Shown: positions 35,850 through 36,479 of the stretch, piece by piece
How the letters are laid out: the number at the start of each line of letters is the position of its first letter
How positions within the stretch are numbered: the stretch's first letter is position 1
Virus record (IMG/VR): IMGVR_UViG_2851949629_000004
From: a virus
Taxonomy: Duplodnaviria > Heunggongvirae > Uroviricota > Caudoviricetes
DNA length: 44,448 nt
Strand: one strand, 5' to 3'
Notes under the pieces: generated by a model
What the model was told of the DNA's origin: nothing
Databases searched by the model: none
What the model saw: only the letters and a program-made list of their open reading frames with translations
Translations under genes and position numbers: made by a program

Positions 35850-35877
35850 TTGGCAATGTACCCTTAGGATACATAAT
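35850..35877 (+). promoter_or_regulatory. candidate early-left promoter with operator (pL/OL-like)
   Basis: TTGGCA (-35), 16-nt spacer containing TGTACC-N5-GATACA (35857..35873), CATAAT (-10). Confidence 0.5.
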
Positions 35878-36314
35878 GTATCTAAAAGAAACATGTCACA
35901 GGCAAGATTAAACAAAATTTGGTTGTAACACGGCGTATGGCACATGCGTCGTTAGCGGTCTGGGGACGTTAAAGGGGACAATCCACTCCTTGCTCGGGCA
36001 AACAAACCAGGTAGCCGGAATGTGCAAGTCAATGATGATGCTGATAAGACGCCTAACCAGCGTGGCGGTTCGGTTTGACACCTGGGAAGAGACCAGGGTG
36101 CAACGATGAGGGCATTTATGGAACCGCGACAAAGTGTGGTGCCGTAACTGGCTAAGTGCTCTCAGCGTTGTGGTGAATGCGCAGGCTGATGCGCGAAAGA
36201 CATTGCAGCTATTGCGGAAAAGAGCTGTTCGGCGGGGCAATTAAACGCCCGTGAGAGTCTGAAATAACCGCAAGCCGGAGATCAGCACCGGTCACCACAA
36301 CAGCCACTGCTTTG

Positions 36315-36360
36315 GCGGTACCAGTTTGTACACTTGCTTCCGGCTGGTACCGCTCTTTTT
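36315..36360 (+). terminator. large stem-loop with T-run in early-left leader
   Basis: Perfect 10-bp stem GCGGTACCAG / CTGGTACCGC (loop 19 nt) followed by TCTTTTT; the following CGCTCTTTTTAC also resembles a boxA element. Confidence 0.5.
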
Positions 36361-36449
36361 ACAAAACAGAGAAGAGCATCACCGGACGACGGGCTCATAA
36401 CCCAATCCATCCGGGCGGCTGCCACCGCAGGTGTTCTTCTCTGTTTTGT
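36361..36449 (+). repeat. 15-bp perfect inverted repeat flanking 59 nt, upstream of first early-left gene
   Basis: ACAAAACAGAGAAGA (36361..36375) and its exact reverse complement TCTTCTCTGTTTTGT (36435..36449). Confidence 0.6.
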
Positions 36450-36479
36450 GGAGAAACCAACCGACCTTGCAGGGTCGAT

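Follow-up and report, generated by a model that had tools for sequence, protein, structure and literature searches.

The N-less early-left leader of an mEp460/SfV-type prophage as a probable cassette of structured-RNA modules

Described early RNAs of lambdoid phages and the layout of the locus

The interval between the pL promoter and the first early-left gene is occupied in phage lambda by the N leader with its nutL site, and this leader also holds an RNase III site. HK022, a lambdoid phage that likewise lacks N, carries in the same place a structured RNA, put, just past pL. In the early dicB operon of the lambdoid prophage Qin, likewise under repressor control, a branched domain of the type termed Y below stands in front of the small RNA DicF, which is matured at its 5′ end by RNase E and at its 3′ end by its terminator or by RNase III, the latter cleaving the transcript ~19 nt beyond the terminator to give a 72-nt form (PMC5069750). 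STnc100 (RF02076) and PasD are prophage small RNAs built from a closing stem (GUUGUGG...CCACAAC), first and last hairpins, a linker and a terminator; the STnc100 copies described so far are found in late operons, e.g. 75 nt after stx2 (PMC12370729). Finally, sRNA-17 of Escherichia coli K1 strain RS218, a 193-nt RNA by RACE that was detected on Northern blots, has been treated as a free-standing, ArcA-regulated and trans-acting small RNA (Sun et al. 2020, PMC7719688).

The locus described here lies in a 44,448-nt stretch of Caudoviricetes DNA (IMG/VR record IMGVR_UViG_2851949629_000004), which was analysed as a whole and is referred to as the window (Table 1). Upstream of the leader, a terminator is annotated at the matching place in SfV and Ayreon, Ayreon also carries an annotated promoter at the pL-like position, and the OL operator repeats the OR-side site at 35103-35119. 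The initial annotation had drawn attention to ~600 nt between pL and the first early-left gene, yfdP (phrog_204 match, E = 1e-49), as devoid of plus-strand ORFs of at least 60 aa and as ending in two hairpins, here HP1 and HP2. All of the sequence features that it claimed are present, offset by at most 1 base from the positions that it implied. The absence of such ORFs holds for 35875-36311, which contains none, and the sole ORF of this size that touches the leader, 36312-36860 with a TTG start, is an open upstream extension of the yfdP frame. On balance, this ‘leader’ is probably a cassette of structured-RNA modules and not an antitermination site. Its modules move as mosaic blocks, with breakpoints at ~35911, 36164, 36285 and 36313.

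Table 1. Features of the early-left leader and its flanks (positions in the window).
Feature	Position	Strand	Description
cI-like repressor gene terminator	35823..35847	+	AACCTGC-TTCG-GCAGGTT, then T7; repressor gene at 35137-35811
pL-like promoter	35850..35877	+	TTGGCA 35850-35855, 16 nt, CATAAT 35872-35877
Operator OL	35857-35873		TGTACCCTTAGGATACA; overlaps the pL-like promoter
Leader, 5′ part	35884..36165	+	No conserved ORF; no significant fold (z = -1.3)
Small RNA (sRNA-17)	36166..36359	+	Y domain, linker and HP1
Y domain	36167..36301	+	Multi-branch RNA closed by GUUGUGGUG (36167-36175) / CACCACAAC (36293-36301)
DicF-like segment	36302..36360	+	Single-stranded stretch, HP1, U tract
HP1 stem	36315-36324 / 36344-36353		GCGGTACCAG / CTGGTACCGC; perfect 10 bp, 19-nt loop
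boxA-like string	36351..36362	+	CGCTCTTTTTAC; HP1 3′ arm and U tract
U tract after HP1	36354-36360	+	TCTTTTT
X element (HP2)	36356..36455	+	Three-way junction, -51 kcal/mol
X P1	36361-36380 / 36430-36449		U tract 36356-36360 pairs with GGAGA 36451-36455
X P2	36382-36388 / 36408-36414
X tip	36389..36407	+	ACGGGCUCAUAACCCAAUC, invariant; internal loop AC / AAUC, three G-C pairs, 7-nt loop
X tip, G-C pairs	36391-36393 / 36401-36403		Loop CUCAUAA 36394-36400
X P3	36415-36418 / 36425-36428
Hairpin P4	36462..36477	+	CGACCU-UGCA-GGGUCG; between X and the ribosome-binding site
yfdP with Shine-Dalgarno	36485..36860	+	GAGGAG 36485-36490; ATG 36498; 120 aa

The 5′ part of the leader is dispensable among relatives, pL directly adjoining the next module in two of them (L109 and L075), and P1-like plasmids carry, immediately 3′ of tRNA-Ile, a stretch that matches positions 35917-36028 at 89.5% (H66, L301). 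A 39-aa ORF in the leader shows 74, 24 and 17 substitutions at codon positions 1, 2 and 3, every change seen altering the peptide, and judged by this pattern it is evolving as non-coding DNA. The ArcA-regulated promoter to which sRNA-17 has been attributed would be located in 35917-36166 (PMC7719688). A separate promoter for the small RNA may exist in this interval, where a promoter scan showed no sigma-70 consensus upstream of 36166. At the other end of the leader, hairpin P4 differs in sequence among relatives and keeps its hairpin form.

A small-RNA unit ending at HP1

All 13 of the sRNA-17 primers and probes listed in Table S2 of the original report (PMC7719688) find a 100% match in the window. 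The primers for the full-length RNA extend over 36166-36359; the Northern probe and the 5′-RACE primers are antisense to the plus strand, which fixes the strand of the RNA as plus; and the primer based on 3′-RACE ends at 36359, inside the U tract after HP1. By these matches, 36166-36359 corresponds exactly to sRNA-17, an RNA detected experimentally in another E. coli strain. Among the roles first suggested for the leader, that of a small RNA is thus supported, HP1 and its U tract standing at the 3′ end of an RNA that was mapped with RACE and Northern blots. The report on sRNA-17 mentions neither its location in the pL leader of an mEp460/SfV-type prophage nor its DicF/STnc100-like build, and X is absent from it as well.

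HP1 has the perfect 10-bp stem and T run that had been annotated, and its stem can be extended to 13 pairs; a simple terminator scan missed it because the 19-nt loop exceeds the scan's 8-nt limit. Stem, U tract and RACE end agree in pointing to an intrinsic terminator that would also be the 3′ hairpin of the small RNA. Because this putative terminator sits between pL and yfdP, HP1 would act as an attenuator for the operon; of the attenuator proposal, the element and its placement have been borne out, and attenuation itself follows from position. In a lysogen, sRNA-17 is detectable and yfdP yields ~0.5 reads, an accumulation next to a near-silent gene that fits efficient stopping at HP1. Both yfdP and yfdR are up-regulated in an sRNA-17 deletion mutant (PMC7719688); these are the immediate downstream genes, a circumstance that the report does not note.

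The unit runs from the domain closed by GUUGUGGUG/CACCACAAC through UUUGGCGGUAYCAGUUU to a hairpin and a U run, an architecture of the DicF/STnc100 type. Its HP1 segment has 16 of the 17 nt of UUUGGCGGUAYCAGUUU in common with dicF, plus the tail CCGCYCUUUUU. Intermediates are found among relatives: the HP1-type segments of two (L101, L131) score 29.6 bits against the DicF model, and a third with an HP1 nearly the same as that of the window (L094) matches the full STnc100 model at 43.2 bits. STnc100 scores in relatives amount to 35-43 bits against a gathering threshold of 47, with sub-threshold copies in ST64B, Qin and P1-like plasmids. Upstream of dicB, Qin itself presents a Y-type domain, dicF (76.7 bits, the control) and an STnc100-like domain (38.8 bits). 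In the window, DicF (RF00039, threshold 48 bits) gave no match at E <= 10 in 36150-36380, and STnc100 (RF02076) gave none, even at E <= 10 in the 231-nt search. The relationship of the window's unit to DicF and STnc100 is drawn from architecture, short common strings and intermediates. Differences from DicF in the 5′ single-stranded part and the hairpin loop mean that ftsZ and other targets cannot be assumed for this RNA; relative to STnc100, the interior of the Y domain differs and the unit follows pL in place of late genes.

The Y domain folds no more stably than shuffled sequences (z = -1.25) and, in the window, matched no Rfam family in an E-value scan of 36150-36380. Its slot is filled in relatives by STnc100-type domains or by an insert-bearing tRNA-like gene (Rfam tRNA scores of 43.9 and 29.5 bits in L107 and L101). 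A copy of the Y domain lies ~70 nt 3′ of tRNA-Thr in P1-like plasmids, and Y-type domains are found also after dicF, after stx2 and within the P1 tRNA region.

The X element downstream of HP1

The second inverted repeat, 36361-36375 / 36435-36449, is a perfect 15-bp repeat enclosing 59 nt, as had been annotated, and forms part of a larger element, X; its stem reaches 20 pairs with G-U pairs allowed and 25 with the U tract-GGAGA pairing. The region 36290-36500 folds at -89 kcal/mol, compared with -60.7 +/- 4.4 among 200 shuffled sequences, none of which did as well (z = -6.5). Over 29 distinct X variants, RNAalifold recovered 37 pairs, with compensatory changes in 12; the paired cells amount to 96.2%, a value that none of 500 shuffles attained and that drops to 41-53% once the partner is slid, and G-U pairs are tolerated on the plus strand only. 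With a fold that beats shuffles and covariation in relatives, both hairpins are real structures at the RNA level, and both inverted repeats are conserved. Rfam searches returned nothing in the leader, whether the whole window was scanned at the gathering threshold or 35700-36600 and 36150-36380 by E-value; X has no entry in Rfam 15, and it matches neither the YrlA nor the TLS families there. HP2 is an independent, conserved three-way-junction RNA that is apparently undescribed.

Hosts of X include Enterobacterales phages and one Acidobacteria MAG prophage, the element being placed in early-left leaders or upstream of lysis genes; because an overly permissive pattern let E. coli-type copies saturate the metagenome scan, this census under-samples the spread of X beyond Enterobacterales. 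Of the 117 long-stem copies, 115 have a U run immediately before X, whereas the gene that follows differs (yfdP-, yfdR- or RdgC-like), which suggests that X is coupled to the terminator. X closes the tRNA arrays of Klebsiella and Raoultella phages, where it begins a few nt past the CCA of the preceding tRNA. All copies of this type have a 6-7-bp stem and end in ACCA or GCCA, so resembling a D-arm-less tRNA of ~70 nt, whereas the window's copy has a 20-25-bp stem with no CCA after it. The initial annotation did not recognize HP2 as an independent, widely distributed tRNA-like motif.

At the tip of X, the 14 nt at positions 36390-36403 (CGGGCUCAUAACCC) agree at every base with the E. coli initiator-tRNA anticodon stem-loop, the reference being verified at 100% identity to annotated tRNA-Met, present in four copies per E. 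coli genome. The identical 19-nt tip is carried by at least six unrelated complementary stems, one of them in a different phylum (examples of the stems are CCAAUCG/CGAUUGG, CUGUCUG/CGGGCAG, CCCAGUA/UGCUGGG and GAUCGUG/CACGAUU), and the variants seen are a UCC closing in Klebsiella and CUCAUUA in ST64B and Kp4866-6. Neither ARAGORN nor the Rfam tRNA model (RF00005) reports X in the window or in relatives, where they do detect neighbouring tRNAs. X shows no cloverleaf, having no D arm and, in P3, a 6-nt loop without a T-loop match. The thrS operator, the bacterial Y-RNA-like YrlA and plant-virus TLS are all tRNA mimics; like these, X copies part of a tRNA, in its case the anticodon arm, to which some copies add NCCA, and it differs from them in having no D arm or T-loop consensus and in its extra conserved AC / AAUC internal loop. 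The T4 ‘species 1/2’ RNAs, located at the end of the T4 tRNA cluster, resemble Klebsiella-phage X in this position. To our knowledge, no mimic of the initiator anticodon arm has been described in phage operon leaders.

Two further candidates were rejected. The CUGAUGA of Klebsiella copies recalls a hammerhead but is not conserved (CCGGACGA in E. coli) and, by eye, has no GAAA after it; a pseudoknot between the CUCAUAA loop and AUGAG at the start codon downstream was found in some lineages only.

It is enticing to speculate that X is a mimic, in trans or in cis, of the initiator-tRNA anticodon arm and engages a host factor that is conserved universally, while the helix or tRNA array around it serves excision only. 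Candidate partners would be the 30S P site with IF3, MetRS, an enzyme modifying the CAU loop, or a tRNA-fMet-specific anticodon nuclease such as VapC, for which X would be a decoy. This possibility, tentative as it is, draws on the invariance of the tip from Enterobacterales to the Acidobacteria MAG prophage while all flanking stems have changed, on the presence, among the 14 nt identical to tRNA-fMet, of the three G-C pairs typical of initiator tRNA, and on the look-alikes ending in NCCA within tRNA arrays. It also draws on the placement of X right at the beginning of early-left or lysis operons, from which it follows that X is made early in those transcripts. Weighing against mimicry are the CUCAUUA of ST64B and Kp4866-6, which places U at position 37 where tRNAs always have a purine, the conserved internal loop without a tRNA counterpart, and the failure of ARAGORN and the Rfam tRNA model to recognize X. 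On such a reading X might perhaps represent a previously unrecognized class of RNA, used by temperate phages from Enterobacterales to Acidobacteria, that occupies the factor reading the initiator anticodon arm, and that is excised from the head of early-left and lysis operons or the end of tRNA arrays by RNase III or tRNA-processing enzymes.

Probable working of the cassette and its significance

The most likely working of the leader, and one that we consider reasonably probable, is that of a small-RNA gene doubling as an attenuator, followed by a tRNA-like element processed by RNase III. HP1 would stop most pL transcripts as the small RNA, only a fraction continuing to the early-left genes, and the 5′ end at 36166 would arise by processing of a longer transcript, by analogy with the RNase E-dependent 5′ end of DicF. 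In read-through transcripts, RNase III would cut the 20-25-bp basal helix, which includes the terminator U tract, and the cut would at once shorten the small RNA, detach the yfdP mRNA and liberate X. The parallel is DicF: in Qin, a 15-bp helix (1567-1581 / 1692-1706) covers the site 19 nt beyond the terminator, and the order of ydfABC, Y domain, dicF, 15-bp helix and dicB corresponds to that of the cI-like gene, pL, leader, HP1 and 25-bp P1 in the window, although the element after the dicF terminator is a second STnc100-like domain where the window has X. X itself would be a tRNA-like RNA recognized by a conserved host factor. Copies with a short basal stem (Klebsiella type, L147, L148) are not RNase III substrates, so processing cannot be the universal role of X.

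X could alternatively be a cis-acting 5′-UTR element, 30-50 nt before the ribosome-binding site, that tunes the translation or stability of the first gene. In most long-stem copies, L148 and L167, the X core does lie 72-117 nt upstream of the first start codon, whichever gene follows, but start-codon contexts differ, no loop complementarity is conserved beyond AUG, a terminator and ~230 nt separate X from the holin gene in Klebsiella phages, and all downstream genes have a strong, accessible Shine-Dalgarno sequence. Such a role is unlikely.

Quite improbable is an HK022 put-like, protein-independent processive antiterminator that would carry polymerase past HP1 and later terminators. N homologues are missing from this phage family (SfV, mEp460, ST64B, LLS), and for LLS a put-like antitermination mechanism has been proposed (PMC12315714). 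The Y domain is suitably placed for such an element, after pL and ahead of the first terminator, and begins ~10 nt past the promoter in L109 and L075. However, a put covariance model (R1, built from HK022 putL and putR, HK639, phiEt88, CobraSix and S9-5) found no match in the window with default filters or in the five related loci of mEp460, SfV, ST64B, LLS and phiNP; with filters off, it scored at most 8.6 bits anywhere in 33000-37500, compared with 49.6 bits for the divergent HK022 putR. A blastn search with putL matched 21 phages, none from this family, and blastn-short was also negative. Comparison of 35880-36500 with the rightward operon gave no convincing repeat, with no element found past both pL and pR; the three further settings of Y-type domains are ones where antitermination makes little sense, and yfdP is essentially silent in the lysogen in which sRNA-17 accumulates. 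Unlike HK022 put, the window's module shows no sequence or structure match and no copy on the pR side, and it ends in a putative terminator. The boxA-like string of the initial annotation is present, but it is not a true conserved boxA of the CGCUCUUA type and was rejected as such because relatives carry CGTCCTTTTT, CGCCCTTTTT, GCACCTTTTTT or CGCATTTTTTT at this position (GTCCTT, GCCCTT, CACCTT, GCATTT), the variation to be expected of a terminator arm. With put model, left/right repeat and boxA all negative, the suggested protein-independent antiterminator finds no support. The claim that the leader has no N-like gene holds: its short ORFs, searched on both strands against Pfam and PHROGs, have no Pfam or known-function PHROG match, and in contrast to the lambda nutL leader there is no N-like ORF, conserved boxA or boxB-type hairpin. 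Only PHROGs of unknown function were hit, all across X; these matches, which overlap X on both strands, were judged spurious. As far as sequence analysis goes, a new type of cis-acting antiterminator RNA in 35884-36301 is conceivable.

That HP2 is a functionless remnant, either a tRNA pseudogene in decay or a scar of recombination, conserved through the recent spread of one mobile segment, is scarcely credible: leader modules do travel as mosaic blocks and relatives hold real or degenerate tRNA-like genes nearby, but the compensatory changes, the strand-specific G-U pairs and the identical tip on unrelated stems across phyla speak against it.

Read as a small-RNA gene and attenuator followed by a processed tRNA-like element, the ‘empty’ stretch after pL in a very common prophage family becomes an RNA cassette, of which 3021 of 5426 complete E. 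coli genomes carry some part. This family includes the SfV-type serotype-converting phages and Stx2c phages. For N-less lambdoid phages, this reading would constrain models of how the early-left operon is run: pL would first yield a terminated small RNA, and neither a put nor a nut site was detected. Calls of several PHROG families and ‘hypothetical proteins’ across X on both strands are probably artefacts. Polar effects on the adjoining yfdP and yfdR offer a simpler reading of the sRNA-17 deletion phenotype, and sRNA-17, DicF and STnc100/PasD, described separately, would be joined into one modular architecture. Should X sequester a translation-initiation factor or a nuclease of tRNA-fMet, it would constitute a new way for phages to interfere with the host, and if a tRNA-fMet-cleaving toxin such as VapC is the target, X would be an anti-defence decoy.

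Early-left leader and sRNA-17

The window represents an SfV/mEp460-type lambdoid prophage, and the SfV, Ayreon and mEp460 annotations show the same gene layout (table). E. coli strain 120899 matches a 721-nt region around the leader, the stretch between pL and yfdP, at 99.9% identity; of 5426 complete E. coli genomes, 3021 contain at least part of the region, and the same query matches 484 plasmid places. Homology along the leader forms a mosaic whose breakpoints lie near 35911, 36164, 36285 and 36313. In two related loci, L109 and L075, a strong pL (TTGACA ... TACATT) lies about 10 nt 5' of Y, the branched domain (36167-36301 in the window) that precedes the first hairpin, HP1; there a small RNA of ~190 nt would be the primary promoter-proximal transcript, and window 35884-36165 is therefore an optional insert.

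Further features of the window include a 537-aa ORF (39171-40784, minus strand) that runs opposite to the early-left genes, presumably resembles an IS66-family transposase, and may interrupt the early-left operon as an insertion. In the rightward operon, the C4 and IsrK RNAs both lie inside a 278-aa ORF (33418-34254) annotated in SfV and Ayreon as an 'immunity region' protein; the region looks like a P1 immI-type unit of RNA and antirepressor, and the ORF is possibly spurious.

Features of the prophage and elements of X, the second leader hairpin
Feature	Position	Strand	Remarks
IS009	1073-1271	-	Full-length Rfam match, 223 bits
Direct repeats	32822-32930		Five of 19 nt, GGTGAATCTCCTGCACTAC-like, spacing 21-24 nt, inside replication gene 32374-33192 (-); probably origin iterons
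C4 antisense RNA	33706-33793	-	Rfam 82.8 bits
IsrK	33818-33894	-	Rfam 63.7 bits
LexA-like cI repressor gene	35137-35811	+	
Terminator of cI-like gene	35823-35840		
pL-like promoter	35850 to 35877		TTGGCA at 35850, 16 nt, CATAAT ending 35877
Operator overlapping pL	35857-35873		Repeat of OR-side site 35103-35119
X P1	36361-36380 / 36430-36449		Extended by pairing of U tract 36356-36360 with GGAGA
X P2	36382-36388 / 36408-36414		
X apical stem			Three G-C pairs capped by loop CUCAUAA
X P3	36415-36418 / 36425-36428		
yfdP	ATG 36498		First early-left gene, followed by yfdQ and yfdR homologues

The initial annotation had described the leader as free of ORFs, devoid of an N-like gene and ending in two RNA structures, and this description is borne out. 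No plus-strand ORF of at least 60 aa lies within 35875-36311; a 182-aa ORF from TTG 36312 is merely the yfdP frame, which stays open upstream of its start. The perfect 10-bp stem (36315-36324 / 36344-36353), the T-run that follows it (TCTTTTT, 36354-36360), the boxA-like string CGCTCTTTTTAC (36351-36362) and the perfect 15-bp inverted repeat enclosing 59 nt (36361-36375 / 36435-36449) are all present, and the suggested RNA folding, applied to 36290-36500, gave z = -6.5 against shuffles, none of 200 being as good. The accompanying interpretation was partly right: its small RNA and attenuator readings stand, and its antiterminator reading gains no support from the put model, repeat and boxA tests.

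Sun et al. (2020, PMC7719688) used 5'/3' RACE and Northern blotting to map a 193-nt small RNA, sRNA-17, inside an mEp460-like prophage of E. coli K1 RS218. All 13 oligonucleotides of their Table S2 match the window exactly, with the full-length primers at 36166-36359; relative to the plus strand, the 3'-RACE primers are sense, and both the 5'-RACE primers and the Northern probe are antisense. From these orientations and positions it follows that sRNA-17 has the direction of the pL transcript and that its 3' end falls within the U tract behind HP1. The RNA that accumulates in vivo is identical to 36166-36359, and HP1 and its small RNA are already known in substance. The fragment named the sRNA-17 "promoter" corresponds to 35917-36166, and the deletion spans 36192-36309 and leaves HP1 intact. 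In the deletion mutant yfdP rose ~95-fold, and yfdR was also up (PMC7719688). These are the genes immediately downstream of sRNA-17. Judging from the primer design and the orientation of the pKD3/4 cassette, read-through from the resistance cassette would be a simpler explanation than regulation in trans. In the wild-type lysogen yfdP yields ~0.5 reads and sRNA-17 is visible on a Northern blot (PMC7719688); a nearly silent yfdP beside a detectable sRNA-17 fits efficient stopping at HP1.

X, a conserved three-way junction

HP1 and X are conserved RNA structures. For X, a three-way junction was predicted by RNAalifold from 29 distinct early-left-type sequences, and the covariance check proposed in the initial annotation finds compensatory changes at 12 of 37 pairs. 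Paired cells amount to 96.2%, against 41-53% when the partner is slid by 1-3 columns, and 12 pairs are changed on both sides, against 3-6; none of 500 shuffles reaches either value. The frequent U-G pairs are meaningful for plus-strand RNA only. The basal helix takes in the U tract of the terminator.

The spread of X emerged from a blastn search with 36290-36500, which unexpectedly matched Klebsiella phages exactly at the ends of annotated tRNA genes, the common piece containing GGGCUCAUAAYCC. Scans with the invariant core gave 120 viral loci and 28 loci in species-representative genomes (~4 expected by chance), and further scans added 17 viral and 120 metagenome loci. In the full set of loci, 38 different flank pairs carry the 19-nt tip ACGGGCUCAUAACCCAAUC, and 25 of them pair at 6-7 of 7 positions, with unrelated arms such as CUGUCUG/CGGGCAG, CUACCUG/CGGGUAG, CCCAGUA/UGCUGGG, GAUCGUG/CACGAUU and, in an Acidobacteriaceae MAG prophage, CCAAUCG/CGAUUGG. 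Two loci (L139 and L162) whose flanks pair at 3 and 1 positions were judged chance matches. In locus L270 the closing pair of the AC / AAUC loop changes from G-C to A-U, which favours a 2 x 4 internal loop over GA/UC pairing.

The Acidobacteriaceae copy (L147, PMHC01000083.1, 2540-2625, minus strand) carries the tip on 9-bp and 10-bp stems that are unrelated in sequence, and lies between genes of a phage-like region that includes a glucosaminidase-type lysin gene; it is the sole clear copy outside Proteobacteria among the species-representative genomes and may be contamination. In the window, ORFs across X (36282-36483) match phrog_3651, phrog_38074 (minus strand) and phrog_33599 (plus strand), all of unknown function, and 'hypothetical proteins' are annotated across X in mEp460, cdtI and Ayreon; these matches on both strands are probably artefacts of the conserved RNA.

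A U run, the terminator of the small RNA, lies directly 5' of X in 115 of 117 long-stem copies. The gene downstream of these is mostly yfdP-like and elsewhere yfdR-like or RdgC-like; short-stem copies precede holin and endolysin genes, and in one locus (L239) X follows a cI-like repressor gene. With the U run nearly constant and the downstream gene varied, X is linked to the sRNA terminator and to the heads of early-left or lysis operons rather than to yfdP.

The sequence of the E. coli initiator tRNA, confirmed as a tRNA-Met gene (100% identity, 4 copies per genome), has 14 consecutive nt of its anticodon stem-loop, UCGGGCUCAUAACCCGA, in common with X; in ST64B and Kp4866-6 the X loop is CUCAUUA. 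In Klebsiella, Raoultella and related phages X lies downstream of Q and starts a few nt behind the last tRNA's CCA; it is a ~70-nt RNA with a 6-7-bp basal stem, a 7-bp P2, a 6-bp P3 and an ACCA or GCCA end. This type resembles a tRNA lacking the D arm, and we would suggest that the long P2 could stand in place of the stacked D and anticodon stems. X was called by neither ARAGORN nor the Rfam tRNA model, matches no Rfam 15 family, and its core sequence was not found in print in our literature search. X appears to be undescribed and the interesting part of the leader.

Y domain and its architectural kinship with DicF and STnc100

The 265 nt upstream of X were extracted from 111 related loci and follow a constant plan. 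Y comes first, with GUUGUGG(UG)...(CA)CCACAAC as its closing stem; a short linker, in most loci UGCUGUGUGUAGUCUUGGCGG, then leads to a hairpin followed by a U run. The sequence inside Y is exchanged between lineages. In ST64B it is STnc100-like (35.1 bits, model positions 31-147), and one locus (L094) matches the entire STnc100 model (1-206) at 43.2 bits, the gathering score being 47, with a terminator hairpin nearly identical to HP1 of the window. Elsewhere (L101 and L107) the place of Y is taken by a tRNA-like gene that has an insert and a CAU loop, negative in ARAGORN and scoring 29.5 and 43.9 bits, respectively, against the Rfam tRNA model. Such genes of ~125 nt (L101 4364-4488 and L107 1077-1203, both minus strand, and L128) combine D-/T-arm consensus, a 7-8-bp GUUGUGG/CCACAAC acceptor-like stem, a ~50-nt insert and a CAU 'anticodon' loop. 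The comparison suggests a tRNA-gene origin for Y/STnc100-type domains. In the window a second GTTGTGG ... TCACAAC pair (32155-32223, spacing 69 nt) lies inside coding sequence and is probably due to chance.

The DicF sequence used here has an exact match (100% identity) in each of 3968 E. coli genomes. HP1-type segments of two loci (L101 and L131) score 29.6 bits against DicF, and the HP1 region of the window has in common with dicF the string UUUGGCGGUAYCAGUUU (16 of 17 nt) and a CCGCYCUUUUU tail. Between ydfC and dicB of Qin, a Y-type domain (the variant found in the cdtI and Ayreon leaders) is followed by dicF (76.7 bits) and, directly behind dicF, an STnc100-like domain (38.8 bits) whose closing helix has 15 bp. 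Y plus HP1 of the window gave no Rfam score for DicF or STnc100 and is therefore classed with their relatives by architecture, not as a member; in its overall plan the unit is built like both.

Pieces of the leader also recur in P1-like plasmids, where a Y-type module lies ~70 nt after tRNA-Thr, a copy of window 35917-36028 directly follows tRNA-Ile, and the tRNA region carries an STnc100-like copy. These pieces (L300 2501-2649 and 3206-3325; L301 2501-2611 and 1199-1318) occupy unannotated gaps of P1-type phage-plasmids directly after tRNA-Thr or tRNA-Ile. The STnc100 copies already described belong to late operons, e.g. 75 nt after stx2 (PMC12370729), and PasD has been named a relative of STnc100.

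Antitermination and proposed working of the leader

The antitermination question was left open for the SfV/mEp460-type phage group in the LLS paper (PMC12315714). Six put RNAs served to build a covariance model, which recovers HK022 putR at 49.6 bits and has no hit in the window, nor in the loci of mEp460, SfV, ST64B, LLS and phiNP; with filters off, its best hit in 33000-37500 scores 8.6 bits and lies outside the leader. A blastn search with putL matched 21 phages, none of the window's family, and no repeat linking the left and right operons was found. The boxA-like string varies freely among relatives. The short ORFs of the leader have no Pfam match and only PHROGs of unknown function, in keeping with the reported lack of an N-like gene; a 39-aa ORF annotated in Ayreon was rejected as a gene, since its substitutions fall mainly at codon position 1, all those seen alter its product, and a stop codon is present in one copy. 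The antiterminator reading is not supported and seems improbable; an antiterminator RNA of a new kind might escape these tests.

The small RNA and attenuator readings can be joined in one scheme. For DicF, the closest relative, PMC5069750 (citing Faubladier 1990) states that RNase E generates the 5' end, and that the 3' end arises either at the terminator (53 nt) or through RNase III (72 nt). In Qin, the point 19 nt past the dicF terminator falls within the 5' strand of the 15-bp helix closing the next domain. After induction of the prophage, most pL transcripts would stop at HP1, and trimming at 36166 would yield the small RNA. Read-through transcripts would fold the 25-bp P1 helix, which RNase III would cut, parting the small RNA from the yfdP mRNA and releasing X. 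As an attenuator, HP1 would set a high ratio of small RNA to mRNA.
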